A stretch of DNA of 64,000 bases from Verrucomicrobiota bacterium. GTDB lineage: Bacteria > Verrucomicrobiota > Verrucomicrobiia > Limisphaerales > UBA11358. Numbering within the stretch: position 1 is the stretch's first letter; each line of letters opens with the position of its first letter. The translations under genes were made by a program, and so were the position numbers. The stretch lies in assembly GCA_049516255.1 (NCBI GenBank), contig JBEKTH010000005.1, positions 7,798-71,797 on the forward strand. The letters run 5' to 3'. Under the pieces are notes generated by a model, which worked only from the letters and a program-made list of their open reading frames with translations, ran no database searches and was not told the origin of the DNA. Shown here piece after piece: positions 9,804 to 55,333 of this stretch.

Positions 9804-10262
9804 ATGAGCAAACAAGAATCACCACCTGAAATGACCGGACTCCTGGTCATCGGCTACGGCAATCCATTGCGTTGTGACGACGGGGTCGGCCCGAAGGTGG
9901 CCGAAGCGGTGGAAGCGCTTCAACTGCCCGGCGTACGCACGCTCGTCTGCCAGCAGCTTTCGCCCGAACACGCCGAACCGATCTCCCGCGCGCGGGTGGT
10001 GGTGTTTGTGGACGCCGCCATGGACACGCCGACGGAAGTGCAGTTCCGGAAACTTGAACCCGGCGAGACCTCCCAGCTCATGGCCCACGCCGCCGACCCG
10101 CGCACGATGCTGGCCCTGGCGCGGGACGTGTTCGGCCGCGCGCCCGAAGCGTGGTGGCTGACCATTCCCGCCGTGAAACTGGCCTTCGGGACGGACTTTT
10201 CACCCGCCGCCCAGCGCGGTTTCGAAGTGGCCCTGGAAAAAATTCGGGAAATCTGCCGTTGA
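9804..10262 (+). CDS. hoxW: Hydrogenase maturation endopeptidase (HoxW/HycI family)
   Basis: 152 aa with the LLVIGYGNPLRCDDGVGPKV N-terminal motif typical of [NiFe] large-subunit C-terminal proteases. Confidence 0.85.
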   Translation: MSKQESPPEMTGLLVIGYGNPLRCDDGVGPKVAEAVEALQLPGVRTLVCQQLSPEHAEPISRARVVVFVDAAMDTPTEVQFRKLEPGETSQLMAHAADPRTMLALARDVFGRAPEAWWLTIPAVKLAFGTDFSPAAQRGFEVALEKIREICR

Positions 10263-10272
10263 AGTCGGGTCC

Positions 10273-10645
10273 AACGCAAAGACGCGAAGAGGTTTAACCA
10301 CGGATTAACACGGATGAACACTGATTCCTTGCGCTGAAGGCGCTACGGAAATTAGCCCGGGGTTGGAACGCAGTGATTACCCCACGACCCTCACCTGTCC
10401 TCCGGACATCCTCTCCCGTTCCCACGGGCGGGGAATTTATTTTTGGGACGTTTTCCCAGGGTAGCTCGGTCCGAGCCGGACGGGACACCTCGCAACCCTG
10501 GGCTAATATCTGTCAGCCTTAGAGGCTTTCAATCAGTGTGAATTAGTGCAATTCGTGTCAGTGCTTTACACCTTTGCAACTTGGCGTCTTTGCGTTGAAT
10601 TCGACTCCCATCCCATCCGTGTTAATCCGTGTCCATCCGTGGTTG
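10273..10645. repeat. Nested inverted-repeat complex filling the hoxW/hypB convergent spacer
   Basis: AACGCAAAGACGCGAAG (10273-10289) pairs with CTTGGCGTCTTTGCGTT (10580-10596). AACCACGGATTAACACGGATGAACACTGATT (10296-10326) pairs with 10535-10543 plus 10607-10645. An inner pair at 10331-10364 versus 10495-10531 is matched by hand alignment. ORFs 10294..10488 and 10546..10779 only translate these repeats. Confidence 0.7.
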
Positions 10646-10648
10646 AAA

Positions 10649-11419
10649 TCAAGCCGCTTGTTTCTCGACCAAAAAATCCAGCCAGGCCTTCATACCGTCG
10701 CCGGTTTTTGCCGACAGTTCAAAAATCCGCGCGTGATGGCTCACCCGCTCCAGATTTTGCAACGCCAGTTCGCGATTGAACCCCGCCGCCGCCGCCATGT
10801 CGCTTTTCGTCACCACGGCGACCTGTGCCGAATGGAACATCGGCGGATATTTCAGCGGTTTGTCCTCGCCTTCCGTGACCGACAACAGCACCACGCGCAA
10901 ATCCTCGCCCAAATCGTAGTCGGCGGGGCAGACGAGGTTGCCGACGTTTTCAATCACCAGCACGTCGAGCTGGTCCAAATTCATTTGCGCCGCCGCCTTC
11001 GCAACCATGTCCGCGTCCAGATGACAGACCGTGCCGGTGGTGATTTGCACCACGGGAATCCCGGCAGTGCGCAGCCGGGCGGCGTCGTTGTCCGTCGCGA
11101 GATCGCCGACAATCACGCCCACGCGCAATCGGCCCGCGAGTTTCGCCGCCGTTTCACCGATGAAGGTGGTTTTGCCCGAGCCCGGTGACGAAACCACGTT
11201 GAGCACCAGCAATTTTTTGGCGCGGAAGAACCCGCGGTTTTGTTCCGCCAACCGGTCGTTCTTCTCAAGCAGCGAGAGGTTCAGGCTCACGGTTTTTCCG
11301 CCAAGCGGATGTCCATGGCCGTGATGATGTCCATGGCCGTGATGATGGTCGTGATCATGGGAATGACCGCCGATTTTCACATCGCCGCCGCCGAGACCGC
11401 ATCCGCATTCTTTGCACAT
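10649..11419 (-). CDS. hypB: Hydrogenase nickel-incorporation GTPase HypB
   Basis: MCKECGCG N-terminus, His-rich tract HSHDHDHHHGHGHHHGHGH, and P-loop SSPGSGKTT. Confidence 0.92.
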   Translation of the reverse strand: MCKECGCGLGGGDVKIGGHSHDHDHHHGHGHHHGHGHPLGGKTVSLNLSLLEKNDRLAEQNRGFFRAKKLLVLNVVSSPGSGKTTFIGETAAKLAGRLRVGVIVGDLATDNDAARLRTAGIPVVQITTGTVCHLDADMVAKAAAQMNLDQLDVLVIENVGNLVCPADYDLGEDLRVVLLSVTEGEDKPLKYPPMFHSAQVAVVTKSDMAAAAGFNRELALQNLERVSHHARIFELSAKTGDGMKAWLDFLVEKQAA

Positions 11420-12016: not shown

Positions 12017-14671
12017 ATGAAACCATCCCTCACCACTTCCGTTGCCGGGAATACCCGGCTGAAGCTCGCCGTTCGCGGCGCGGTGCAGGGCATGGGCTTC
12101 CGCCCCTTTGTCTTCCGGCTCGCCACCGGCCTCGGCCTGGCCGGCTGGGTCAGCAATTCTTCCCAGGGCGTCTTTATCGAAGCTGAAGGCCCGCGCGCGG
12201 CGCTCGAACAGTTTCTCCTGCGACTCGGGGCTGAAAAGCCCACGCACAGTTTCATCCAAAGCCTGGAAGCGTCATGGCTCGATGCGGTTGGCTTCAAGGC
12301 GTTCGAAATCCGGCCGAGCGAAGCCGGCGGCGACAAGACCGTCCTGGTGTTGCCGGACATCGCCACGTGCCCGGATTGCCTCCGTGAAATCTTCGATCCG
12401 AAAAATCGTCGCTACCGTTATCCGTTTACCAATTGCACCCACTGCGGCCCGCGCTTCAGCATCATCGAATCCTTGCCCTATGACCGCGCGAACACCTCGA
12501 TGAAAAAATTCACGATGTGCCCGCAGTGCCGGGCGGAGTACGATGACCCGCGCGACCGCCGGTTTCATGCGCAACCCAATGCCTGTCCGGTTTGCGGCCC
12601 GCGGTTGGAATTGTGGCAAGGTAGGACAGGCTTCCAGCCTGTTTCTGACTCCAATAAAAATGGAGACAGGCGCGACGCCTGTCCTACGGACAACGATGCC
12701 CTGCTCGCCGCCGCCCAGGCGATTCGTGAGGGAAAAATCGTCGCGGTCAAGGGACTGGGCGGTTTTCACCTGATGGCTGATGCGCGCAACGACAAGGCCA
12801 TTCAGTTGTTGCGCGAGCGCAAGCAGCGTGAGGAAAAACCCTTCGCTCTGATGTTCCCGTCACTGGAAAGCGTGAAAGCCGAATGTGAAGTCTCGCCGTT
12901 GGAAGAGCGGCTGCTGTGCTCGCCCGAAGCCCCGATTGTTTTGCTGAAGAGGTTGGTCCGCCCTCGCCCCGGCCCTCTCCCCCAGGAGAGGGAGAATCAT
13001 CTGCCGCTTGACCGCGAAAATGTGACTGCGGGCCATCCAGGCGAGGTAAAACAAATTGAGGCACACGAAGTCTGTTCCCTCTCCCCGGGGGAGAGGGTCA
13101 GGGCGAGGGCGGGTGTTGAACACAATTGCCTGCGGGTTGCTCCATCTGTCGCACCCAATAATCCTTATCTTGGCGCGATGCTGCCTTACACGCCGTTGCA
13201 CCATCTGCTGCTGGCTGAACTCGGTTTTCCGGTCGTTGCCACCAGTGGCAACCTGAGCGACGAACCGATTTGCACGGACGAACGCGAAGCCCTGGAGCGG
13301 CTCGGTGGCATCGCCGATGTTTTTCTCGTCCATGACCGTCCGATTATCCGGCACGTGGACGATTCGATGGTGCGTGTGATGCTCGACCGCGAACTCGTGC
13401 TGCGCCGCGCCCGCGGTTACGCCCCCTTGCCAATCATTCTGAACTCCGAACTCCGAACTCCGAACTCCGAAATTATTCTCGCCGTCGGCGCGCACTTGAA
13501 AAACGCCATCGCCTTGTCCGTCGGCCCGCAGGTTTTTATCAGCCAGCATATCGGTGATTTGGAGACGGAACAGGCGCATAACGCTTTCCGACGGGTCATC
13601 GCCGATTTTGAAAAACTCCACGACGCCAGGCCTCGAATCGTCGCCACCGATTTGCACCCGGATTATCTTTCGACCCGGTTTGCCCTGGAGATCGGTAGGG
13701 CTGAGCTGCCGCCCGGCCAGGACGCGCAGCAACGCGTCCCTGCCAGGGTTGGCGTTCAACACCACATCGCCCATGTCCTGTCCTGCATGGCGGAAAATGA
13801 ACTATCGCCCCCAGCGCTGGGTATTTCTTGGGACGGCACCGGTTATGGGCTGGATGGCACCATCTGGGGAGGTGAATTTTTCCTCGTCACGGACAAAACC
13901 GTCAAGCGCGCCGCTCACTTGCGTCCGTTCCGTTTGCCCGGTGGCGAGCAGGCGGTCAGGGAACCGCGCCGCACCGCGCTCGGTCTGCTTTATGAAATAT
14001 TCGGTGACGTCCTTTTCGAGCGGAACGACCTTGCGCCCGTCGCCGCCTTTGCTCGAACGGAACTGGCGGCGTTGAAAACGATGCTCGCGAAGCAGTTGAA
14101 TTCGCCCATCACTTCCAGCCTGGGCCGGTTGTTCGACGCGGTGGCCTCGCTCGTCAACCTCCGCCAGCAAATGCGGTTCGAAGGCCAGGCCGCCATGGAA
14201 CTGGAGTTTGCGCTCGATGGTGTGAATACGGATGAAGCCTATGAATTGCCGATTGCGGTTCGTGGGGATCGCCGCAGAGCGGGACAGGCTGCTCGCCCCA
14301 CCAAAACTCCGAACTCCGAACTCCGAACTCCGAACTCCGGAATGATTTTGGATTGGTCGCCGGCGGTGGAAGCGATCTTATCGGACGTGCAAAATGGTGT
14401 TGCCACTGGCAAAATATCGGCGAAGTTCCACAATGCGCTGGCGGAAGCCGTGGTGGCCGTGGCCGAAAGAATTGGTGAGCGGCGTGTGGTGTTAAGCGGC
14501 GGATGCTTTCAAAATCGCTATTTGACCGAACGGACGGTGCGGCGTTTGCAAGCAGAGGGCTTCCAGCCATATTGGCACCAGCGCATCCCCCCCACTGATG
14601 GCGGGATTGCCCTCGGCCAAATTGTCGCTGCCTTTCGCGTGCAGCATGAAATCGTAAATCAAAAATCATAA
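12017..14671 (+). CDS. hypF: Carbamoyltransferase HypF, carrying several in-frame repeat-derived insertions
   Basis: Acylphosphatase-like VQGMGFRPFV, two zinc-finger pairs (CPDC..CTHCGPRFS, CPQC..CPVCGP), YrdC-like VKGLGGFHL, and a Kae1-like C-terminal half. Start set at ATG 12017 because ORF-track start 11681 would overlap hypA. Confidence 0.9.
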   Translation: MKPSLTTSVAGNTRLKLAVRGAVQGMGFRPFVFRLATGLGLAGWVSNSSQGVFIEAEGPRAALEQFLLRLGAEKPTHSFIQSLEASWLDAVGFKAFEIRPSEAGGDKTVLVLPDIATCPDCLREIFDPKNRRYRYPFTNCTHCGPRFSIIESLPYDRANTSMKKFTMCPQCRAEYDDPRDRRFHAQPNACPVCGPRLELWQGRTGFQPVSDSNKNGDRRDACPTDNDALLAAAQAIREGKIVAVKGLGGFHLMADARNDKAIQLLRERKQREEKPFALMFPSLESVKAECEVSPLEERLLCSPEAPIVLLKRLVRPRPGPLPQERENHLPLDRENVTAGHPGEVKQIEAHEVCSLSPGERVRARAGVEHNCLRVAPSVAPNNPYLGAMLPYTPLHHLLLAELGFPVVATSGNLSDEPICTDEREALERLGGIADVFLVHDRPIIRHVDDSMVRVMLDRELVLRRARGYAPLPIILNSELRTPNSEIILAVGAHLKNAIALSVGPQVFISQHIGDLETEQAHNAFRRVIADFEKLHDARPRIVATDLHPDYLSTRFALEIGRAELPPGQDAQQRVPARVGVQHHIAHVLSCMAENELSPPALGISWDGTGYGLDGTIWGGEFFLVTDKTVKRAAHLRPFRLPGGEQAVREPRRTALGLLYEIFGDVLFERNDLAPVAAFARTELAALKTMLAKQLNSPITSSLGRLFDAVASLVNLRQQMRFEGQAAMELEFALDGVNTDEAYELPIAVRGDRRRAGQAARPTKTPNSELRTPNSGMILDWSPAVEAILSDVQNGVATGKISAKFHNALAEAVVAVAERIGERRVVLSGGCFQNRYLTERTVRRLQAEGFQPYWHQRIPPTDGGIALGQIVAAFRVQHEIVNQKS
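12620..12688. repeat. 69-nt palindromic element inside hypF, translated in frame as GRTGFQPVSDSNKNGDRRDACPT
   Basis: Outer stem GTAGGACAGGC (12621-12631) / GCCTGTCCTAC (12677-12687). Internal hairpins are ACAGGC-ttcca-GCCTGT and ACAGGCG-cga-CGCCTGT. Confidence 0.75.
12958..13112. repeat. MITE-like ~155-nt element with ~37-nt terminal inverted repeats inside hypF, translated in frame
   Basis: Left arm CCGCCCTCGCCCCGGCCCTCTCCCCCAGGAGAGGGAG (12958-12994). Right arm TCCCTCTCCCCGGGGGAGAGGGTCAGGGCGAGGGCGG (13076-13112). A related arm occurs at 37884-37926. Confidence 0.75.
13441..13474 (+). repeat. (GAACTCC)x4 heptanucleotide tract inside hypF (translated NSELRTPNSE)
   Basis: Four perfect GAACTCC units at 13441-13468 plus a partial unit. 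ATTCT occurs on both sides (13436-13440 and 13475-13479). Confidence 0.9.
13694..13744. repeat. Probable repeat-derived insertion in hypF (GGTAGGGCT... with a CAGGACGCG/CGCGTCCCTG hairpin), translated AELPPGQDAQQRVPA
   Basis: It starts like the 5240 element (GGTAGGGC) and contains a hairpin. It sits where HypF proteins normally run directly into the conserved GVQHHxAH motif. There is no second copy in this window. Confidence 0.4.
14261..14338. repeat. Composite insertion in hypF: a copy of a dispersed repeat (14261-14305) followed by five heptanucleotide units (AAACTCC plus GAACTCC x4, 14304-14338)
   Basis: The reverse complement of 14261-14305 matches 36917-36961 at 41 of 45 positions by hand alignment. 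The heptad tract is perfect after its first unit. Confidence 0.85.
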
Positions 14672-14681
14672 ATCGAAAATG
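14648..14681 (+). repeat. Solo heptad arm (AAATCGT AAATCAA AAATCAT AAATCGA) forming the hypF stop and the hypC start region
   Basis: Same unit family and orientation as the right arm of the four-helix-bundle cassette (43093-43128). The hypF TAA (14669-14671) lies inside it. Confidence 0.75.
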
Positions 14682-16030: not shown

Positions 16031-16135
16031 GAAACATTCAACATTCAACGTCCAACGCTCAACCTCGAACGAGTGGATTCGACGCGCCACCAGAATTGAA
16101 AGTTCGATGTTGAAGGTTGAAGGTTGAATGTTTTC
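16031..16135. repeat. Imperfect ~105-nt hairpin built from TTCAACN / GTTGAAG heptads between hypD and hypE
   Basis: Left arm 16031-16070 (GAAACATTCAAC ATTCAAC GTCCAAC GCTCAAC CTCGAAC). Right arm 16096-16135 (GTTCGAT GTTGAAG GTTGAAG GTTGAATGTTTTC). The terminal 12-13 nt pair almost perfectly. Confidence 0.8.
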
Positions 16136-21422: not shown

Positions 21423-24400
21423 ATGATTCAACGCAACATTCCCCTCGTTCCCGTATGGACGCGTCGCACCCTGATGGTCGCATCCGGCATCGCCGCGGCG
21501 GGGGCGGGAATGATCCTCCTGATGGCAACGGCGCGGGCGGATTCGATCGAGGACGGCTTTCGTCATCCGCCTGATTCTGCAAAGCCGCAGATTTGGTGGC
21601 ATTGGATGAACGGCAATATTACCCGGGAAGGCATCACCGCGGACCTTGAGTCCATGAAACGCGTGGGCATCGGCGGGGCGACGATTGTCAACGTGGATTG
21701 CGACATTCCGCCGGGGCCGGTGAAGTTTATGAGCCCGGAATGGCGCGCGATGATGCGGTACGCGGCCCAAGAGGCGAACCGATTGGGACTGGAACTCTGT
21801 TTGGAAAACTGCGCCGGTTGGTCCAGCAGCGGCGGTCCCTGGAACACTCCGGAGCACGCCATGCAACGCGTCACCACCAGCGAACTGAAGGTGAAAGGCC
21901 CGATGCATTTCAGCGCGGTGCTGCCTGCACCCCCGGTCACACTCGGCTTTTACCGCGACATTGCCGCGCTGGCATTCCGTACCCCAAAAGGCGAAGCCGT
22001 TGCGGGGGAACCGGCCGCGATTGAAGACCTTGACGCCAAGAGTGGTGCGAATGGGCAGTTTGTTTTGTCTTCACCCGCCGCTGACCACGCGGCAGCGGAC
22101 CAGGTCGTGCCCCGCACCAACATCGTGGATCTGACCGATGAAATGCACACCGACGGCCACCTCGAATGGGACGTGCCCGCCGGGGATTGGACCATCGTGC
22201 GCCTCGGGCACACACCCACGGGCGTGGAGAATCATCCGGCCCCGGTGGAAGGCACCGGCCTGGAATGCGACAAGTTCAGCCGGGAAGCCCTGGACGCGCA
22301 TTGGGCAGGGTTCGTCCAGAAAGTCCTCGACGACCTCGGGCCGCTGGCCGGCAAAGGGAAGACCTTGAACAATGTGCTCATCGACAGTTATGAGGTGGGC
22401 GGACAGAACTGGACGCCCCAATTCCGGTGGGAATTTGAAAAGCGCCGGGGCTACGACCCGCTGCCATTTCTGCCGACGCTGACCGGCCGGGTGGTGGACA
22501 GCCCGGAGGTGTCGGAACGGTTTCTTTGGGACTTGCGGCGGACAATCGCGGATTTGTTTGCCGATGACTACTACGGTCATTTTCAGGAACTTTGCCATCA
22601 GCATGGGTTGAAGGCCGCCTTCGAGCCTTACACCGGGCCCTTCGAATCGTTGCAATGCGGCGAGGCGGCGGACATTCCCATGGGCGAATTCTGGGCCGGC
22701 GGCGCACCGGACCCGTCCGTCAAACTCGCTTCTTCCGTCGGTCACATCTTCGGTCAGCCAATCATCGGCGCCGAGTCCTTTACCGCGGCGCCCGGCCCGC
22801 AACACGGACGCTGGCTCGACGATCCCTATTCGCTCAAGGCCCTGGGCGACGAGGTCTTCTGCCAGGGCATCAATCGATATATCTTCCACCGCTTTGCCAT
22901 GCAACCGTGGACCAACCGCTGGCCCGGCATGACCATGGGCCAGTGGGGCACGCACTTCGATCGCACCTCCACCTGGTGGGAACAGGGCCGCGCCTGGCTT
23001 CAGTATGTCACCCGCTGCCAATACCTCCTCCAGCAGGGCCGCTTCGTGGCCGACGCCGCCTATTTTTGCGGCGAAAGCGCCCCGGTCGAAACCCGCGCCG
23101 GCGACCCCGCCCTGCCGGCCGGTTATGACTATGACGACGTCAACGCGGACGTCCTGCTTCACCACGCCGCGATGCAGGACAACCGGCTGGTGCTTGACAG
23201 TGGTATGAGTTACCGCGTGCTCATCCTGCCGCCGTCCGACCCGGACATGACGCCGGACCTGCTCCGGAAACTGGCGGGATTTGTCGCCGACGGCCTGGTC
23301 GTGGTGGGTCGGCCGCCCCGGGCTTCGCCGAGTCTCGAAGGATATCCGGCCTGTGACGTTGAGGTGCAGGAACTGGCAACCCGGATCTGGGGCGACGGCG
23401 ACGGCCGGACCGTTACCGAACACACGTTCGGCCGCGGCCGGGCGGTTTGGGGCCGAAGCCTGGTCCAGGTGCTTGGCGACCTGAACCTGGAACCGGACTT
23501 TGCATACCCCGCGCCGGACAACGCCCAGCTCGACTACATCCACCGACGCGATGGTGCAACGGAAATTTATTTCGTCTCCGATCAGCGAAACCAGTTTGAC
23601 ACGGTCGAGTGCAGCTTCCGCGTCCAGGGACTGCAGCCGGAACTTTGGAACCCGGAGACCGGCGACATCCAGACGGCGCCCGTCTGGCGCGAAGAAAACG
23701 GTCGGACCGTGGTCTCCCTGTCCTTTGGACCATCGGGTTCGGTGTTTGTCGTGTTCCGCGCCAAAGCACAGGGCGACCATCTCGTCGCCGTCGAGCGTGA
23801 CGGGCCCCCGGTTGTCGAAGCGACGGAGCCGGCGGTGGATTTGCGCATTCTCAAGGCCGTTTACGGGGTCGTCCCAAGTTGGAGCGACGTGACCGCCACG
23901 GTCAAATCCCTTGTCGCCGGCGGCGCGCGTCAGATTCCCGCCAGCAACGACATGGCAGGAGACGACCCGGCCCCGAATATCGTCAAGCAATTGCGCGTGA
24001 CCTATAGCCTGAACGGCCGGTGGCAAACCAATGAGGTGACGGAAGGCCAGGCCCTCGAGCTCCCGGCCGGTGCGGAGGTGAAGCAGGCCCTCTACGGTCG
24101 GTTACCATCGTCATCCAACCAGGGCGACCAGCAGTTGGACCTGACCGCGAAACTCTCGGCCCGGGTCAAACACGGTGCGTTGAGTGTTCGCATCGACAAC
24201 GACTTCGCGGGCGGTGATCCGGCCATCAACGATTTCAAGGAACTGGGGGTGGATTATACCGTCGATGGCATTCGCAAGCGCGCCACGATTCCGGAACATG
24301 AAATGTTGACCCTGCCCGAAACCACGCTTCCCACCGGCGCCTGGCGGCCCTACGTTTTCCTCGCCGGAACGAATCAAATCCGGTTGCTGGCCCTGGCGCC

Positions 24401-27235: not shown

Positions 27236-27335
27236 GGTTGAAGGTTGAAAGTTGAGTGTTGAGTGTTGAAAGTTAAAACGGCTCGTCGATAGCCTCGCCC
27301 CACCTTGGCGTTCCTGGTGTCTTGGCGGTTGATCC
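27236..27335 (+). repeat. Composite repeat: GTTGAAG-type heptads (27236-27281) plus a CTTGGCG-type repeat (27293-27335)
   Basis: GGTTGAA GGTTGAA AGTTGAG TGTTGAG TGTTGAA AGTTAAA, then CCTCGCCCCACCTTGGCGTTCCTGGTGTCTTGGCGGTTGATCC. Confidence 0.8.
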
Positions 27336-30597: not shown

Positions 30598-30668
30598 TGA
30601 AAGTTGAAGGTTGAAGGTTGAGAATGAAAACAGATTTCGCGTGTCCGGCGTCTTTCGCGGTCAAAACC
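30598..30668 (+). repeat. Composite repeat: GTTGAAG-type heptads (30598-30631) plus a CTTGGCG-type repeat (30631-30668)
   Basis: TGAAAGT TGAAGGT TGAAGGT TGAGAAT, then CAGATTTCGCGTGTCCGGCGTCTTTCGCGGTCAAAACC. Same order and orientation as 27236-27335. Confidence 0.8.
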
Positions 30669-41685: not shown

Positions 41686-42693
41686 CTACCGGTTTACCGG
41701 GGGCAGGGGATAGCTGGATAGCGCCCGCATGTATTGCGCCCGTTCAAACGTGGCCGGGTCGGCGCAGTTTTTCTGGCTCAAACTGCCTTTGAGCTGGGTC
41801 ACGGATTCGTATTCGTGTTCCTCCAGCCACGCGACCATTTCCCGCTCGATCACGCCGATTTGCTGGACGCCATGCCGGATGAGCACGGAACAGAGCATCG
41901 TCACGTCCGCGCCGGCCATGAGCATTTTCAGCACGTCGGTGGCGCGATGCAGGCCGCTAGTCGCTGCCAGACTGGCATTCAGGCGGAGGTAAAGAATCGC
42001 GATCCAGCGCAACGGCAGCCGCATCGCCATCGGGGTGCTCAGCAGGATGTTCGGTTTCACCTCCAATGTTTCCAGATCAATGTCCGGCTGGTAGAACCGG
42101 TTGAACAGCACCAGGCCGTCGGCGCCCGCTTCGTCGAGCCGCTTGGCCATGTTCGCAAAATTGCTGAAGAAGGGGCTGAGTTTGACGGCCACGGGAATCG
42201 TCACCTGGGATTTCACGGCCTTGAGGATGTCCAGGTAGGTCTGCTCCACCTTCGCGCCGGTCAGCTCGAAATCCGTCGGGATGTAATAAATGTTCAGTTC
42301 CATTGCGTCCGCGCCGGTCTGTTCAATCTGTTTCGCATATTTTGTCCAGCCGCCGGTCGAGGAACAGTTCAGGCTCGCAATGATCGGAATGCGCGTCGCC
42401 TTTTTGGCCCGGGCGACGTGGTGGAGGTATTCCTCGGGGCCGATATGAAACGACTCCGGTTCGGGGAAATAGGTGAGCGCTTCGGCGAAACTTTCGGTTC
42501 CCTGCTCCAGATGATGCGCCAGTTCGGCGCGTTCCAGGCGCAGTTGCTCCTCGAACAGGGAATACAGCACCACTGCCGACGCCCCCGCGTCTTCCATCCG
42601 TTTGATGTTGTCAATTTCCTCCGACAATGGCGACGCTGCGGCGACGAGCGGCGTCCGCAGTTTCAAGCCGAGATAAGTGGTGTTCAGATTCAT
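41686..42693 (-). CDS. Dihydroorotate dehydrogenase-like (class 1 DHOD fold) protein
   Basis: 335 aa with N-terminal [18 protein letters not shown] and a TIM-barrel flavoenzyme pattern. Lies downstream of nifJ on the same strand. Confidence 0.7.
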
Positions 42694-42694
42694 G

Positions 42695-42730
42695 GTATTT
42701 ATGATTTACGATTTATAATTTATGATTGCG
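42695..42730. repeat. Left heptad arm of the four-helix-bundle cassette
   Basis: Its reverse complement, CGCAATCATAAATTATAAATCGTAAATCATAAATAC, matches the right arm at 27 of 31 aligned positions. Confidence 0.85.
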
Positions 42731-43069
42731 AGCCGTTCGTCTCGTGGCGCTGAAAATTTTGGTCAACTCAACTGCTTCCGTCTGCAATTCACCGACCTGT
42801 TTTGGCGGGACCAACGCGGCTCGTTTTGCCAATTCAATCCACAAATCCGTTTCGTCAGCTTCCTCCAGAACGATTGTAATTTTGTTTATGAAATCCGCGC
42901 GCGATTTTCCGCGCAGCGCCGAGCGATAATTCGACGCCTCCGAACAGCCGCTGCGCGCAATCTGATCGGCAATCGTTCTTCCTGATGGTTTGTTTGGAAG
43001 GGCGTCGGCAAATTTGAGAACCCGGACGGCGAATTGAATGGTCCTTTCTTTAAGTTCAATTGGATTCAT
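42713..43069 (-). CDS. Four-helix-bundle protein (23S rRNA intervening-sequence protein family)
   Basis: 118 aa: ERTIQFAVRVLKFADALP ... IADQIARSGCSEASNYRSA ... FINKITIVLEEADETDLWIEL. The last codons (RNHKL) and the stop lie in the heptad arm. Confidence 0.8.
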   Translation of the reverse strand: MNPIELKERTIQFAVRVLKFADALPNKPSGRTIADQIARSGCSEASNYRSALRGKSRADFINKITIVLEEADETDLWIELAKRAALVPPKQVGELQTEAVELTKIFSATRRTARNHKL

Positions 43070-43092
43070 ATGCCCTCAAAATTGATCCGGTA

Positions 43093-43128
43093 AAAAATCA
43101 TCAATTATAAATCATCAATCACAAATGA
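43093..43128. repeat. Right heptad arm of the four-helix-bundle cassette
   Basis: AAAAATCATCAATTATAAATCATCAATCACAAATGA, ending 2 nt below the nifJ stop codon (complement of 43131-43133), i.e. immediately downstream of nifJ. Confidence 0.85.
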
Positions 43129-43130
43129 CT

Positions 43131-46100
43131 CTACGGTTGTTGATCCGCCGTGGCGGCGGGTTTGGGTGTCGCCGTGACGGTTGCGCCGTTGCTGTTCGTC
43201 TTCAAATCGCGTCCGCCCAGATACTGGTAAAATTTCCAGCGCCGTTCGGAATCGGCCTGGGCCTGGGCAAAAAACTGTTTGGCCGCCTCCGGTTTGCTCT
43301 TGGTGAGCATCTTGAAGCGGTTTTCCGACAGCAGAAAATCCTGCACCTTGGCCTTCGCCGCCGGGGAATCCATTTGCAACGGATTTTCCCCGCGCTCGGT
43401 CCGGCGTGGATCGAACCGGTACAGCAGCCATTGACCGGAATCCACCGCCAGCTTCTGCTGCCGCGCGCCCACGCCCATGTCCACCGCGATGCCGTGGGCA
43501 ATACAATGGCTGTAGGCGATGATGAGCGAGGGGCCGGGATAGGATTCCGCCTCGACGAACGCGCGGAGCGTCTGCTCGTCCTTGGCGCCCAACGCCACGC
43601 TCGCCACGTAGATGTGGCCGTAGGTCATGGCGATAAGGCCGAGGTCTTTCTTGCCCATGGCCTTGCCGCCGGCGGCAAACTTGGCCACCGCGCCGCGCGG
43701 CGTGGACTTGGACATCTGCCCGCCGGTGTTGGAATAAACCTCCGTGTCGAGCACCAGCACATTCACGTCGCGCCCGCTGGCCAGCACGTGGTCCAGCCCG
43801 CCGTAGCCGATGTCGTAGGCCCAACCGTCGCCGCCGACAATCCACACGCTCTTCTTCACCAGTTGATCGGCGAGGCCCAGCAGCAATTTGGACTCCGGCG
43901 AACCGAGCCTCGCCAATTTTTGCTTCAACGCGGCCACGCGCTCGCGCTGGTCGTGGATGCCGGCCTCGTCGGATTGATTGGCATTGATGAGGCCCGCCAC
44001 GAGCTCATCGCCGAGTTGCGGCGCGAGTTTCTTCGCCAGTTCAACGGCAAATTCCCGTTGTTTGTCAATCGAGACACGGAAACCAAGGCCGAACTCCGCG
44101 TTGTCCTCGAACAACGAGTTGCACCAGGCCGGGCCGCGGCCCTCGGCATTTTTCGCGTAAGGCGTCGTGGGCAGGTTGCCGCCGTAAATCGAGGAACAAC
44201 CGGTGGCGTTGGCGATGACGGCGCGGTCACCGAACAATTGTGACAGCATTTTGAGATAAGGTGTCTCGCCGCAACCGGCGCAGGCGCCGCTGAATTCGAA
44301 CAGCGGTCGCAGGAGCTGTTGCTGGCGGAGCTGCGTCAGCTTGACCTTGCGCCGGTCCAGTTCGGGCAGATTGAGGAAGAAATTCCAGTTCTCGCGCTCC
44401 GGCAATCGCAGCGGCGCCTGCGGCCGCATGTTGATGGCCTTGAGTTTGGCCTCGGTTTTGTTGCGCGCCGGGCAGACGTCCACGCACAACGAGCAGCCGG
44501 TGCAATCCTCCGGTGCCACCTGCAGCGTGAACTTCCAGCCCTTGAACTCGGGATTGCGACTGTCCACGCTCTTGAACGTTGCGGGCGCCTGGGCGAGCGC
44601 CGCCGGCTCAAACACCTTCGCGCGGATGGTCGCATGCGGGCAGATGGCCACGCACTTGGCGCATTGGATGCAGATTTTTTCGTCCCAGACCGGGATCTCG
44701 ACAGCGAGATTGCGTTTCTCGTATTGGGCGGTGCCGGTGGGAAACGTGCCGTCGGCGGGGAACGCGCTCACGGGCAGTTCGTCACCTTCCCCGGCGGTGA
44801 GCCGGCCCAGCACGTTCTTCACAAAGGCCGGGGCGTCGGGCGAGAGGGGTGGAAGCAGGCCGCCGCTGCCGTTCACGCGGTTTGGGATCGGCACCTCGTG
44901 GAGGTGCTCCAGCGTGTTGTCCACGGCCTTGAGGTTCATGGCCACGACTTCCTCGCCTTTTTTACCGTAAGTTTTCTTGATGGAATACTTGATGGCTTCG
45001 ATGGCCTGGTCGCGCGGCAGCACGCCGGACAGCGCGAAGAAACAGACCTGCATGATGGTGTTGATGCGTCCGCCCATGCCGCTGTCGCGCGCCACCTTCG
45101 TCGCGTCGATCACATAAAACTTGACCTTCTTGGCAATCAGCGATTCCTGCACCGGCGTCGGCAGTTGGGACCAGATTTCGTCCGGGGAGTGGGGCGTGTT
45201 GAGCAGGAACGTCCCACCGGGCACCAGCGGTTTGACCATGTCGAATTTCTCCAGAAACATCGGCAGATGACAGGCCACAAAGTTCGCGCGCGTAATCAAA
45301 TACGTCGAGCGAATCGGCTTCGGCCCGAACCGCAGATGCGACACCGTCATGCTGCCGGACTTCTTGGAGTCATAGACGAAGTAACCCTGCGCGAAATTGC
45401 CGGTGCCTTCGCCGATGATTTTGATGGAATTTTTGTTCGCGCCCACCGTGCCATCCGCGCCCAGACCGTAGAACAACGCGCGAATCACGTCGTCGGATTC
45501 GGTTGAGAAGTTGTGATCCACCGGCAGGCTGGTGTGGGAGACGTCGTCGGTGATGCCGACGGTAAAATGGTTCTTCGGTTTCGCGGCGGCGAGATTGTCG
45601 AACACGGCCTTGACCATGGCCGGGGTGAATTCCTTGGAGGACAAACCGTAGCGCCCGCCGTACACCTTGGGCAGCCATTTGAGGTTGCCCCAGCCGTTGG
45701 CCATGCCTTCAAGAATCGCCGCGACGCAGTCCTGATAGAGTGGTTCGCCGGTGGCGCCCGGTTCCTTGGTGCGGTCCAGCACCGCCACCGATTTGGCCGA
45801 CCGCGGCAGTGCCTCGACAAACCGTTTGCTGTCAAACGGCCGGTACAGGCGCACCTTGATCAGGCCGAGCTTGGCGCCCTGCTGGTTCAGATGCTCCACG
45901 GTCTCGTGTGCGGTTTCGCAGCCTGAACCCATCAACACGAGGATGTGTTCCGCGTCCGGCGCGCCGACATATTCAAACAGATGATATTCTCGCCCGGTGT
46001 ATTGGAGGAATTCGTCCATGACCTTTTGCACGAGGTCCGGGCATCTGGCGTAAAACGGATTGGCCGCCTCGCGGCCCTGGAAGAACGCGTCGGGATTCTG

Positions 46101-46763
46101 CGCCGTGCCGCGCAGCACCGGCCGGTCCGGCGTCAGGCCGCGGGTGCGGATCTCGGCAATCAATTTGTCGTCAATCAGCGACCGCATGACGTCTTCGGAC
46201 AGCATTTCAATTTTTTGCACCTCGTGCGACGTGCGGAACCCGTCGAAGAAATGGATGAAAGGCAGGCGGGCGCGCAGGGTGGCGGCCTGGGAGATGAGCG
46301 CAAAATCCGCCGCCTCCTGCACGGACGCCGAACCGAGCATCGCCCAGCCGGTGGACCGCGCCGCCATGATGTCGCTGTGATCGCCAAAGATGGAAAGCGC
46401 ATGAGTGGCCACCGCGCGGGCGGTGACGTGAAAGACCGCGGGCAGCAGTTCGCCCGCGATCTTGAACATGTTGGGAATCATCAACATCAGTCCCTGTGAA
46501 GCCGTGAACGTGGTGGCGATGGAGCCGGTCTGCAACATGCCGTGGACCGCGCCCACCGCGCCGCCTTCGCTTTGCATTTCCACGATGGCCGGAATGGTGC
46601 CCCAGAGATTTTTTTTGCCTTCGGATGCCCATTGATCGCACCACTCGGCGATGGTTGAGGACGGAGTGATGGGGTAAATCGCCATGACTTCATTCAGGCG
46701 ATAGGCTGTGTGGGCGACCGCCTCGTTGCCGTCCACGGTCAGTAACGTCGTTTTGGCATTCAT
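43131..46763 (-). CDS. nifJ: Pyruvate:ferredoxin (flavodoxin) oxidoreductase
   Basis: 1210 aa with N-terminal TVDGNEAVAHTAYRLNEVMAIYPITPSS, twin ferredoxin motifs CIQCAKCVAICP and CTGCSLCVDVCP, and TPP motif GGDGWAYDIG. Confidence 0.93.
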   Translation of the reverse strand: MNAKTTLLTVDGNEAVAHTAYRLNEVMAIYPITPSSTIAEWCDQWASEGKKNLWGTIPAIVEMQSEGGAVGAVHGMLQTGSIATTFTASQGLMLMIPNMFKIAGELLPAVFHVTARAVATHALSIFGDHSDIMAARSTGWAMLGSASVQEAADFALISQAATLRARLPFIHFFDGFRTSHEVQKIEMLSEDVMRSLIDDKLIAEIRTRGLTPDRPVLRGTAQNPDAFFQGREAANPFYARCPDLVQKVMDEFLQYTGREYHLFEYVGAPDAEHILVLMGSGCETAHETVEHLNQQGAKLGLIKVRLYRPFDSKRFVEALPRSAKSVAVLDRTKEPGATGEPLYQDCVAAILEGMANGWGNLKWLPKVYGGRYGLSSKEFTPAMVKAVFDNLAAAKPKNHFTVGITDDVSHTSLPVDHNFSTESDDVIRALFYGLGADGTVGANKNSIKIIGEGTGNFAQGYFVYDSKKSGSMTVSHLRFGPKPIRSTYLITRANFVACHLPMFLEKFDMVKPLVPGGTFLLNTPHSPDEIWSQLPTPVQESLIAKKVKFYVIDATKVARDSGMGGRINTIMQVCFFALSGVLPRDQAIEAIKYSIKKTYGKKGEEVVAMNLKAVDNTLEHLHEVPIPNRVNGSGGLLPPLSPDAPAFVKNVLGRLTAGEGDELPVSAFPADGTFPTGTAQYEKRNLAVEIPVWDEKICIQCAKCVAICPHATIRAKVFEPAALAQAPATFKSVDSRNPEFKGWKFTLQVAPEDCTGCSLCVDVCPARNKTEAKLKAINMRPQAPLRLPERENWNFFLNLPELDRRKVKLTQLRQQQLLRPLFEFSGACAGCGETPYLKMLSQLFGDRAVIANATGCSSIYGGNLPTTPYAKNAEGRGPAWCNSLFEDNAEFGLGFRVSIDKQREFAVELAKKLAPQLGDELVAGLINANQSDEAGIHDQRERVAALKQKLARLGSPESKLLLGLADQLVKKSVWIVGGDGWAYDIGYGGLDHVLASGRDVNVLVLDTEVYSNTGGQMSKSTPRGAVAKFAAGGKAMGKKDLGLIAMTYGHIYVASVALGAKDEQTLRAFVEAESYPGPSLIIAYSHCIAHGIAVDMGVGARQQKLAVDSGQWLLYRFDPRRTERGENPLQMDSPAAKAKVQDFLLSENRFKMLTKSKPEAAKQFFAQAQADSERRWKFYQYLGGRDLKTNSNGATVTATPKPAATADQQP

Positions 46764-52596: not shown

Positions 52597-52734
52597 TTCG
52601 AGAGCGAAGAAACTATCGGGAAAACCGGCGCTGATGCCAACCTCAAACGCGTGACCGGTGGCCGGTGGCCGGTGACGAGAACCGTACGGTGTGGCTTTCC
52701 TGGTCACGTCACTGGTTACCCGTACTGGTCAAAG

Positions 52735-53986: not shown

Positions 53987-54208
53987 ATGACTGAAGACGA
54001 CAAAAAGGCTCTTTTGGAAAAGAGAGTGCAGGAAATGAGAAAAAAGCGCGATGCGGCTTGGGAAAAAGGTGAATCATGGCCACCCCAGCCTGAGCAAAAT
54101 CAGGATATTCCAGTTTTCACATGGATTCTAACAATCGTTGTCGTGGTGAATGTTATTATGGTAATTGTCGCGTTTGTAAAATTTGTTCTGTTCTGGGATT
54201 TTCATTGA
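53987..54208 (+). CDS. Small hypothetical membrane protein (charged N-terminus, one C-terminal TM helix)
   Basis: 73-aa ORF in an AT-rich islet. Its stop abuts the next ATG (TGAATG). Confidence 0.45.
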   Translation: MTEDDKKALLEKRVQEMRKKRDAAWEKGESWPPQPEQNQDIPVFTWILTIVVVVNVIMVIVAFVKFVLFWDFH

Positions 54209-54589
54209 ATGAACGTTGAGATTTTAACCGTTTGCGATTTTGCAGCGAATCATGACGGTTAGTTGGACATAAAAGGCGCTTCATGTGTGTTCCGGGCCGA
54301 TCAATCCCCAGCCAAGTTGCAATTTTACATTGTAGCCAGAGTCCGGTATGAACCATCAGAGGCAGGCATCCACCCCATTAAAATCTCAATTGTGAATCAG
54401 GACGGGAATTATGTGATCCCCCCAGCAATGCGGGAAAATACTATCCAGTTTTCAGAAGCCGGTTGCGTGGATGAAATTCTGCTTAACATTAAGGAAATCA
54501 CTTTTGAATCTTTCGGCGAATACAGCGTCGTTTTGCAGGTGGACGGGGAGCCTCTAGCGTCCCAACCGTTGTATGTCCTTCCTGCTTGA
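54209..54589 (+). pseudogene. Hypothetical protein gene interrupted by an in-frame TAG at 54260-54262
   Basis: ATG 54209 reads MNVEILTVCDFAANHDG, then TAG, then LDIKGASCVFRADQ... continuing as ORF 54263..54589 in the same frame. The N-terminal pattern (hydrophobic-CDFA-x5-G-[stop]-L-I-G) resembles a small conserved DUF family; this is from memory, unverified. Confidence 0.5.
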
Positions 54590-54729
54590 AAGTCCATTTT
54601 AAATGCCTGTTTGCGTGGTAAACTTGGCTGGATTTGATTTCATCCACAAATTCAGCCAGTCAATCCGGAACAGAAGTAAAAACACAAGGGTGGTTGACCC
54701 AAGGATTTTCATGTGAGATCAACCGATTC

Positions 54730-55149
54730 TTAATGCGTAAGACGCCAAATGAAATATCCGGCAATGATTGTTCCGACAATGCCGAAAAACCACCAGTAAA
54801 AGTGAAACCGATTTTGCTTTATCAATCCAATGGAGGTCTGTGCTTCCGCCTTTTTATTCAATTCTTCAAGGTGTGCCCTACCGGCTGGTTTGATCTCCAT
54901 ATTAATGAGATAACAAACTTGCCCGACCGCATCTCGCCCCAAATCGGTTGTTGAAATGAAACGGCCTAAATACAATTCTGTTAATGCTCTTAAATCATCT
55001 AGTGATGTATTCTCATCCGTAGAAACCGGGCCATCGGCATTGGAAAGAATGGTCAACAACCTGATAAACCTACTCTCTACCGTTTCATTGCGTATGCCAT
55101 TTGACCATGAAAAACCTTTGCTCTCTGGTGTGTTGTGCGGGCTGGTCAT
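54730..55149 (-). CDS. Hypothetical protein with a C-terminal TM anchor
   Basis: 139-aa ORF in the AT-rich islet with C-terminal FHFYWWFFGIVGTIIAGYFIW. Confidence 0.5.
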   Translation of the reverse strand: MTSPHNTPESKGFSWSNGIRNETVESRFIRLLTILSNADGPVSTDENTSLDDLRALTELYLGRFISTTDLGRDAVGQVCYLINMEIKPAGRAHLEELNKKAEAQTSIGLIKQNRFHFYWWFFGIVGTIIAGYFIWRLTH

Positions 55150-55333
55150 TTTAATGGCATTGCATCTGTATTTGACGTGGAACGTGTCGCCGTAGGTATA
55201 AAGCTACTAATTCGATTGCGCCAGCATTTCCTCAATCGTCCACTGGTGGTTTGACTAGCTCCAACTGAGGATATTATGGGTTTAAACCAAAATACTTCCG
55301 CGCCCGGCGGACTTTGCGCTTTGAACTCGCGGG

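Follow-up and report, generated by a model that had tools for sequence, protein, structure and literature searches.

The closest described relative of the element reported here is the intervening sequence (IVS) of the Coxiella burnetii 23S rRNA gene, a 428-444 nt insertion whose 28-bp terminal stem carries the S23p open reading frame (ORF) in its loop (PMC4990558). Its 5' region includes two to three tandem GACAGAT heptamers, RNase III cuts the RNA midway along its stem, and the 5' cleavage site is the start of the first heptamer repeat (PMC4990558). We examined a 64,000-nucleotide stretch of DNA from a Verrucomicrobiota bacterium (contig JBEKTH010000005.1, positions 7,798 to 71,797; hereafter the window), in which a gene for a four-helix-bundle (4HB) protein is held between inverted arms made of heptanucleotide units. 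The element is located between nifJ, which codes for pyruvate:ferredoxin (flavodoxin) oxidoreductase (PFOR), and a gene for a dihydroorotate-dehydrogenase (DHOD)-like protein. We consider it to be, probably, an IVS-type cassette that is gained and lost at operon junctions and whose predicted stem might be processed in the RNA. It is a member of a widespread class of 4HB genes within heptad stems that has so far not been described as such.

Outside rRNA, arrays of the heptamer TAACTGA precede start codons in Beggiatoaceae and have been read as regulatory (PMC4679880), and paired inverted heptanucleotide arrays located between operon genes of Geobacter metallireducens have been reported as putative 'global regulator sites' (PMC2700814). 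The 4HB family is homologous to Avd, an accessory protein of diversity-generating retroelements (DGRs) (PMC10053308), and genes matching PF05635 have been noted inside cas loci and called CRISPR-linked (PMC3936711, PMC10910872). The original prediction for this locus, made from the DNA letters, noted that heptad arms were not known to have been described as the boundaries of a portable 4HB cassette in mRNA operons. We found no paper on a general 4HB module, and none beyond the Coxiella work that joins 4HB genes with inverted heptad arrays, in a literature search whose incomplete coverage makes this absence weak evidence. However, the heptamers of the Coxiella IVS and the paired sites of Geobacter are precedents for parts of the arrangement. 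To our knowledge, PF05635/TIGR02436 is a protein family of very large size with no known function.

Anatomy of the nifJ cassette

By hand alignment, one arm had been proposed to match the reverse complement of the other at 27 of 31 positions. A repeat finder confirmed this count and tightened the boundaries to those given in Table 1, where the two 31-nt arms (87% complementary) are 368 nt apart. The four positions that are not Watson-Crick pairs on the sense RNA comprise two G.U pairs and two G.A mismatches, and the calculated energy of the arm duplex is -25.2 kcal/mol for the sense strand, compared with -17.3 kcal/mol for the antisense strand. Tandem Repeats Finder assigns a period of 7 or 14 to both arms. 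When positions 42680-43140 are folded on the minus strand, as the original prediction had suggested, the arms form the closing stem of the minimum free energy (MFE) structure, which has a value of -142.4 kcal/mol (z = -3.3) that is equaled by none of 100 shuffled sequences. The window contains 11 occurrences of the motif AATCATAAAT with at most one mismatch, where 2.0 ± 1.5 would be expected.

The cassette fills the gap between its host genes, in agreement with the original proposal. Its 5' arm begins 4 nt downstream of the nifJ stop codon, and its 3' arm ends 3 nt before the ATG of the DHOD-like gene. A Shine-Dalgarno-like GAGGG, read from the sequence, is present 5 nt ahead of the 4HB start codon. 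The 4HB gene indeed ends inside its own arm, with the stop codon (42713-42715) located mid-stem, and the C-terminus of the protein (ARNHKL, then stop) is encoded by the 3' arm. Among relatives, a C-terminus reading ARNHKS before the stop codon is near-invariant and is likewise encoded by the 3' arm (AATCATAAATCGTAA), and the 'MIDDF' N-terminal extensions proposed by gene callers are translations of the 5' arm. The size, stem, loop ORF and heptamers all match those of the Coxiella IVS, which upholds the IVS-like topology first proposed for this locus.

The GC content of the cassette is 0.45, versus 0.59 for the window. An Rfam scan of the cassette region returned one sub-threshold snoRNA match and no rRNA or other RNA family, and a sigma-70 promoter scan of the same region found no candidate. 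The sole terminator-like site recovered by an intrinsic terminator scan is located inside nifJ on the opposite strand.

The encoded protein scores above the curated hidden Markov model cut-offs of both PF05635, its sole Pfam match (E=1.3e-14; 54.8 bits, cut-off 33.8), and TIGR02436 (E=8e-22; 77.5 bits, cut-off 24). Its best solved relative is PDB 2RLD, a Bacteroides protein without known function (E=2e-23). An AlphaFold2 model based on a 31-sequence alignment was too poor for a fold search (mean predicted local distance difference test score of 53.5), and so the fold comparison rests on the sequence match to this structure. No PADLOC defence family matches the protein, and no second PF05635 gene was found in the 64-kb window. 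The protein is under purifying selection, with a dN/dS of ~0.1 among orthologues within sites, and this conservation argues for some role serving either the cassette or the cell. The composition of the gene is foreign-looking, because its GC content at third codon positions (GC3) is 0.50 versus 0.77-0.81 for its neighbours, and GC3 is below that of the flanking genes in 79 of 79 cassettes from the family set described below (median 0.63 versus 0.78).

Arms, sites and inheritance across the family

The family set was assembled by scanning one genome per GTDB species (414 relatives). A total of 80 loci were kept, and arm statistics were computed for 79 cassettes. Fourteen of the kept loci are linked to nifJ, and the other 66, at 52-79% identity, are located elsewhere, several of them in metagenome-assembled genomes that also hold a nifJ copy. 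These other 4HB genes carry arms as well. Inverted heptad arms exceed the 99th percentile of random-position controls in 74 of the 79 cassettes, and the lag-7 autocorrelation of the arms is 0.55-0.58 compared with ~0.25 at other lags. Arm offsets are constant in nearly all cassettes, with the 5' arm spanning approximately -59 to -27 relative to the ATG and the 3' arm approximately -15 to +16 around the stop codon. The outer arm ends are ~5-10 nt from the ends or starts of the neighbouring genes, and thus the cassette constitutes the whole intergenic region. With arms also present at seven of eight plasmid genes (see below), the proposal that heptad arms are regular boundaries of 4HB genes outside rRNA holds well beyond the window.

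Pairing between the arms is maintained as their sequences diverge. In an alignment of 63 sequences, 87.7% of stem cells are paired, whereas slid controls reach at most 46%. Eighteen stem pairs are changed on both sides, versus 7.2 ± 1.8 in shuffles, and none of 500 shuffles reaches 18. RNAalifold independently recovers the inner 10 pairs of the stem, and distant members switch the whole unit in both arms (ATTGCAG/CTGCAAT, ATTCTTG/CAAGAAT, ATTAATG/CATTAAT, GACTTAT/ATAAGTC and GAATGAA/TTCATTC). Arms that are merely 13-19% GC and composed of tandem repeats can pair in several registers, as might be expected if two A/T-rich stretches of low complexity were complementary by chance. We nonetheless regard this explanation as almost certainly wrong, given the random-position and shuffle controls, the conserved arm positions, the co-varying units and the recurrence of the arrangement in other phyla. 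It was rejected on the basis of the arm controls and the co-variation counts.

Among Verrucomicrobiota and relatives, cassettes occupy at least 10 different gene junctions in either orientation. These are the junctions of an ABC-transporter permease and its ATPase (~38 loci, with the cassette antisense to the operon), nifJ and the DHOD-like gene (14), an unknown gene termed fam5 and the RNase III gene rnc (7), fam6 and fam7 (6), a cvpA-like gene and gatB (5), dnaJ and rsmE (4), moxR and DUF58 (2), and several singleton junctions. The nearest 4HB relative is found at the same site for 66 of 74 proteins. Three sites hold the cassette in both orientations in different genomes (L037/L041/L045/L060 versus L043/L052; L080/L063 versus L047/L048; and L035-type loci versus L054/L072, where L numbers denote our loci). 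The grouping of the proteins by site and not by orientation indicates that the cassette was inverted in situ, presumably when one arm recombined with the other. An exception to the clustering by site is L040, whose protein is 90% identical to that of L041 at a different site. At L090, the junction between the ABC-transporter permease and ATPase genes is empty (TGAggttccccATG).

At the ABC-transporter junction of one locus, L086, four tandem 4HB genes (three coding for ~104 aa) at positions 10001-11306 have AAATCAT arrays between them. This arrangement looks like the product of unequal exchange between heptad arrays, and it is the only case of extra 4HB copies found in the 10-kb flanks of related loci.

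Cassettes located directly upstream of rnc (Ribonuclease_3 plus dsrm) are in the sense orientation at L035, L038, L039, L044 and L075 and antisense at L054 and L072, and rnc genes are present in related genomes. Should RNase III act on the stem, such placement could permit autoregulation, but it could also be a coincidence.

The spread to at least 10 junctions, the similarity of L040 to L041, the in-situ inversion, the tandem amplification in L086 and a near-precise excision (L120, below) would also suit a DNA transposon resembling a miniature inverted-repeat transposable element (MITE). The heptad arms would then be terminal inverted repeats for a transposase or recombinase supplied in trans, and the RNA stem would be incidental. 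We consider this explanation rather improbable. Copies differ in their arm sequence, even in one genome, and keep just the complementarity and the 7-nt period, which is unlike the needs of a sequence-specific transposase. The cassette copies within one genome are only ~75% identical, indicating no recent burst. In addition, there is no transposase near the cassettes, a comparison by eye of filled and empty ABC-transporter and nifJ junctions showed no target-site duplication, and any long inverted repeat would be expected to invert and delete.

The history of the cassette can be followed most closely at the nifJ-DHOD junction. An identical 4HB protein is encoded on at least 22 peat metagenome contigs, always in the order nifJ-4HB-DHOD, and close homologues are labelled Verrucomicrobiota/Limisphaerales. 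For two proteins that are 84-87% identical (P0017 and P0037), this order is kept despite different downstream synteny, and the arms are kept with variation. A gene order shared by 14 reference genomes and many metagenome contigs might indicate that the 4HB protein is a functional partner of PFOR or of the DHOD-like protein, with the arms as an ordinary intergenic hairpin. This is very unlikely, considering that close homologues (up to 79% identical) are found in unrelated operons, that no PADLOC or other functional family was matched, and that the gene has been cleanly lost in sister lineages. Furthermore, 67 of 68 scorable related junctions lack the 4HB gene.

These junctions come from a metagenome scan with DHOD-like proteins, which added 80 loci. 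Of the 68 that could be scored, 33 are empty (≤30 nt), 8 are ORF-less but contain heptad arrays, 26 carry other inserts, including two families of GC-rich hairpins resembling repetitive extragenic palindromic (REP) sequences, and one carries the 4HB cassette. Empty sites exist even in the sister lineage L120, whose DHOD-like and nifJ products are 97% and 94% identical to those of the window. There the junction is 12 nt long, reads TAAggtcATTTATctATG and retains just the first 6 bases of the 5' arm. Two findings that would have refuted the original prediction, a lack of arms at other 4HB genes and a lack of empty sites, are both contradicted by these data. A neighbour-joining tree of DHOD-like proteins places L120 inside the 4HB-bearing clade, as sister of a pair formed by the window and L022, and so a near-precise loss of the cassette is the simplest reading. 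L129 (92%) has lost the ORF and retains the two arms together with the 'accgg(c)gatc' spacer, and L131 is a more decayed version of this state. A solo 3'-type array is all that is present in L138, L141 and L146, whereas L113-L116 and L121 have heptad hairpins built from other units. In distant relatives, the nifJ stop codon overlaps the DHOD start codon (ATGA), which is the ancestral state.

The two families of REP-like hairpins at this junction are unrelated to each other (L117, L122 and L144; L118, L127 and L137). Their members are 84-98 nt long with predicted energies of -38 to -47 kcal/mol.

Judging from these comparisons, the nifJ-DHOD junction is a hotspot for the gain and loss of hairpin elements, where the cassette is vertically inherited within a clade and is not recently mobile. 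The original suggestion of a portable selfish element is only partly borne out, being qualified by this vertical inheritance, the purifying selection on the protein and the lack of recent movement at this site.

A mechanism can be sketched by analogy to the Coxiella IVS. The cassette would be transcribed with nifJ and the DHOD-like gene, and a ~31-bp A/U-rich stem would form in the RNA. RNase III might cut this stem as it does in Coxiella, and cleavage would free the 4HB mRNA and part the flanking cistrons, such that the insertion would be tolerated. Alternatively, a closed stem might set the nifJ stop codon beside the DHOD start codon and thereby preserve their coupling. In the DNA, the inverted heptad arrays probably drive inversion, slippage and hairpin-mediated precise deletion. 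Its homology to Avd prompts the guess that the 4HB protein might bind RNA or DNA at heptad stems.

Several observations weigh against this interpretation. Since roughly half of the cassettes lie antisense to their host operon, operon read-through cannot be a general route to expression of the 4HB gene. The innermost heptad contains a G.A mismatch (window ~43105 with 42718; alignment A2 columns 73/484) that 45 of 63 cassettes have conserved. To complete the 4HB ORF, ribosomes have to open one half of the stem. Moreover, gene conversion between inverted repeats can yield co-variation of the arms without selection for RNA pairing, and strong purifying selection with long vertical residence also fits a gene that is useful to the host. 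The lack of a transposase and of target-site duplications noted above leaves the cassette without a visible means of movement, and no phage carrier was found, with no relative in IMG/VR and two weak matches among GenBank phages.

The stems were also inspected for strand asymmetry. Overall, G.U pairs outnumber A.C pairs on the sense strand (86 versus 40), but the excess vanishes in cassettes that are co-oriented with their operon (18 versus 16) and so lends no support to the RNA-level interpretation. The sense-strand excess may arise from the choice of TCG or TCA codons in the 3' arm. We rejected this asymmetry as a sign of RNA-level selection, because the operon-sense ratio is 18:16 and codon choice suffices to explain it. 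Even with these reservations, an IVS-type cassette appears to be the best description of the element, by analogy with the Coxiella precedent and on the basis of its anatomy, its family-wide recurrence and its history of gain, loss and inversion.

Heptad repeats beyond the 4HB genes and in other phyla

Table 1. Positions of the cassette, its host genes and other heptad repeats in the window.
Feature	Position	Strand	Description
Whole cassette	42697..43126	-	430 nt; 5' arm, spacer, 4HB ORF and 3' arm
5' arm (sense RNA)	43096..43126	-	ATTTGTGATTGATGATTTATAATTGATGATT; ~4.4 ATGATTK heptads
Spacer from 5' arm to ATG	43070..43095	-	U-run (TTTTTT), ACCGGATC, GAGGG
4HB gene	42713..43069	-	118 aa; PF05635 and TIGR02436 'four helix bundle protein'
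3' arm (sense RNA)	42697..42727	-	AATCATAAATTATAAATCGTAAATCATAAAT; AAATCRT heptads
nifJ (PFOR), upstream host gene	43131..46763	-	TIGR02176, 1838 bits
DHOD-like gene, downstream host gene	41686..42693	-	PRK07565, 2e-154
GAACTCC arrays	13441-13471, 14305-14339		Perfect heptads, x4.4 and x5; inside hypF reading frame
Solo AAATCRT array	14649..14680	+	hypF stop region; unit as in cassette arms; no inverted partner, no 4HB gene
ORF-less heptad hairpin	16033..16133	+	AACATTC arm and GTTGAAG arm; fills hypD-hypE junction; -37.2 kcal/mol
GTTGAAR arrays	27237-27278, 30598-30621		One directly after a stop codon, one directly ahead of an ATG
GTGGCCG array	52651-52674		Within a GC-rich stretch

The original prediction treated the arms as boundaries of the cassette. 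They are regular at 4HB genes, but the class extends further, since heptad arrays and ORF-less heptad hairpins also occur without a 4HB gene. The window contains approximately nine other heptad arrays (Table 1), none with a 4HB gene. The two arrays in hypF are in like orientation, 860 nt apart, and are translated (NSELRTPNSE). Their location within the reading frame indicates that heptad repeats are tolerated in coding sequence. The solo AAATCRT array provides the final codons and the stop codon of hypF (NQKS, then stop, resembling the NHKS ending of 4HB proteins) and ends 1 nt ahead of the hypC ATG. It could be what is left of a lost cassette, or it could be a landing site. The hypE start codon is located within the 3' arm of the ORF-less hairpin.

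Across 1.21 Mb of sequence, 239 arrays with a period of 7 were counted, versus 7 after shuffling, and the corresponding searches found 6 arrays with a period of 8 and 40 with a period of 6. Heptad arrays beyond the primary cassettes number 119 in 1.2 Mb, and many of these are ORF-less inverted pairs. At L090, L094 and L097, nearby ORF-less hairpins share a rare unit with the arms of the local cassette. The genome-wide presence of solo arrays and ORF-less heptad hairpins indicates that the arms are not gene-specific.

A separate feature of the window is a low-GC island (0.43 versus 0.59) at ~54000-55200, which carries small ORFs and lies between genes for an AraC-type regulator and a shikimate-dehydrogenase-like protein.

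Heptad hairpins, with or without a 4HB gene, might instead serve the host as intercistronic punctuation that regulates the relative expression of neighbouring cistrons, whether through RNA stability, processing, presentation of the translation start site or protein binding, with the 4HB protein as a domesticated factor. Arrays right upstream of the starts of hypC, hypE and the ORF at ~30624 are in keeping with this model, as are the ORF-less hairpins at other operon junctions, the regulatory reading given to similar arrays in Beggiatoaceae (PMC4679880) and G. metallireducens (PMC2700814), the low dN/dS of the 4HB gene, the long residence of the cassette at nifJ-DHOD and the seven cassettes that adjoin rnc. 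However, close relatives manage without an insert at nifJ-DHOD (the 12-nt gap of L120 and the ATGA overlap of outgroups), unrelated hairpin elements substitute there, and both orientations are tolerated at one site. The foreign-looking composition of the gene and the functional disparity of the occupied junctions (PFOR, ABC transporter, dnaJ, gatB, cas and DISARM) also argue against a host-serving role, which we judge to be possible but doubtful.

The arrangement is not restricted to Verrucomicrobiota. A plasmid tblastn search revealed 4HB genes in Nostoc, Anabaena, Planktothrix, Gloeocapsa, Chlorohelix (Chloroflexota), Treponema and Bernardetia, and inverted heptad arrays flank seven of the eight plasmid 4HB genes examined, with units such as GATTTTA/TAAAATC, AAATCGT/ACGATTT, AGTAAAA/TTTTACT, GGAAGTC/GACTTCC and GAAAGNG/CNCTTTC. 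The heptad-armed 4HB genes on plasmids of cyanobacteria and Chloroflexota are lodged inside defence operons (cas, DISARM). The occupied sites include the junctions of DUF1156 and Swt1-HEPN (L102, L103), drmD and MmeI (L104/L111), and cas2 and cas1 (L105, L106), among other gene pairs. Of the seven heptad arrays in 50 kb of the Nostoc plasmid pNPUN01, five lie at the flanks of its two 4HB genes, and of the six in 50 kb of a Planktothrix plasmid, five flank its single 4HB gene, for a total of 10 of 13 arrays at three 4HB genes.

The Planktothrix plasmid locus L111 also contains an uninterrupted 208-nt (AAATCGT)n array at positions 23465-23672, between drmA and a DUF1998 gene. Its unit is that of the verrucomicrobial arms, and a hypothetical protein has been annotated over the array.

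One broader idea is that TIGR02436 4HB proteins are dedicated partners of heptad hairpins across bacteria, in a gene-plus-repeat system like RAYT/REPIN or Avd and its RNA. The role of the 4HB protein would be to bind heptad stems, to process them or to assist in their copying, in which case ORF-less hairpins, solo arrays and the short tandemly repeated repetitive (STRR) sequences of cyanobacteria would be footprints of its activity and the 23S IVS would be one landing site. We offer this idea tentatively, as a long shot. If true, it would give STRR and other heptamer repeats and a large protein family without a function one explanation.

Found at the operon junctions of at least four phyla, a fixed module in which a heptad stem encloses a 4HB gene provides a testable handle on PF05635/TIGR02436. 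It also connects rRNA intervening sequences, the STRR heptamers of cyanobacteria and the paired heptanucleotide sites of Geobacter, which have long been treated apart. Armed 4HB genes at cas2-cas1 and drmD-MmeI, and also beside PFOR, ABC-transporter, dnaJ and gatB genes, call for caution with guilt-by-association. Because 4HB genes carry their own arms in cas operons and in unrelated operons, the gene looks like an inserted cassette rather than a CRISPR component, and placement in defence operons may explain published 'CRISPR-linked' calls for the family. In addition, the nifJ-DHOD series, which runs from ATGA overlap through empty junction, solo arm and arm-only hairpin to full cassette, lends itself to the study of how insertions are tolerated between coupled cistrons.

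Comparison with described systems

The ORF-bearing 23S IVSs (Coxiella S23p, Leptospira) resemble the cassette in having a PF05635 protein encoded in the loop, terminal inverted repeats that enclose the ORF with a stem of ~28-31 bp and, in Coxiella, tandem heptamers in the stem region. The sizes are also alike (428-444 nt in Coxiella and 430 nt here). However, the cassette is located between protein-coding genes rather than in helix 9, 25 or 45 of 23S rRNA, and its copies, unlike the 23S IVS, run either with or against the host transcript. Its ORF is intact and under purifying selection, whereas the Coxiella ORF is decaying. Excision by RNase III is described for the Coxiella IVS and may apply to the cassette.

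REP/REPIN sequences and RAYT genes of Pseudomonas and E. coli are similar in that short, hairpin-forming repeats are dispersed in intergenic sites, and in that a gene has on either side inverted copies of a repeat, which is also frequent without the gene. As with REP/REPIN, gene-less hairpins of the heptad class are far commoner than gene-bearing ones. Unlike RAYT, the 4HB protein is no Y1 (IS200/IS605-like) transposase and has no known catalytic motif, and no evidence ties it to the spread of the hairpins. Furthermore, the heptad repeat is defined by its 7-nt period and complementarity, and not by a conserved sequence as REP is.

MITEs and insertion sequences share with the cassette a short length, inverted-repeat boundaries, dispersal and presence/absence polymorphism. 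Unlike these elements, the cassette has no transposase, visible target-site duplication or conserved terminal sequence, and its copies are old and diverged. The DGR protein Avd belongs to a homologous four-helix-bundle family (PF05635/cd16375), but the cassette stands alone inside its hairpin. No reverse transcriptase gene was called within ±10 kb of the locus, and no search aimed at template and variable repeats was made.

STRR is a term coined for cyanobacterial repeats, and its use for Verrucomicrobiota is by analogy. Like the heptad class, STRR-type repeats are tandem 7-nt units that are mostly intergenic and present in many copies per genome. The repeats of cyanobacteria, Beggiatoaceae and Geobacter also resemble the heptads of the window in that they often occur just before start codons or as inverted pairs that separate genes of an operon, and are sometimes intragenic. 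The literature searched on these repeats makes no tie to 4HB genes or IVS elements. In contrast to the repeats as described there, the arrays reported here are concentrated around 4HB genes, both in Verrucomicrobiota and on the Nostoc and Planktothrix plasmids.

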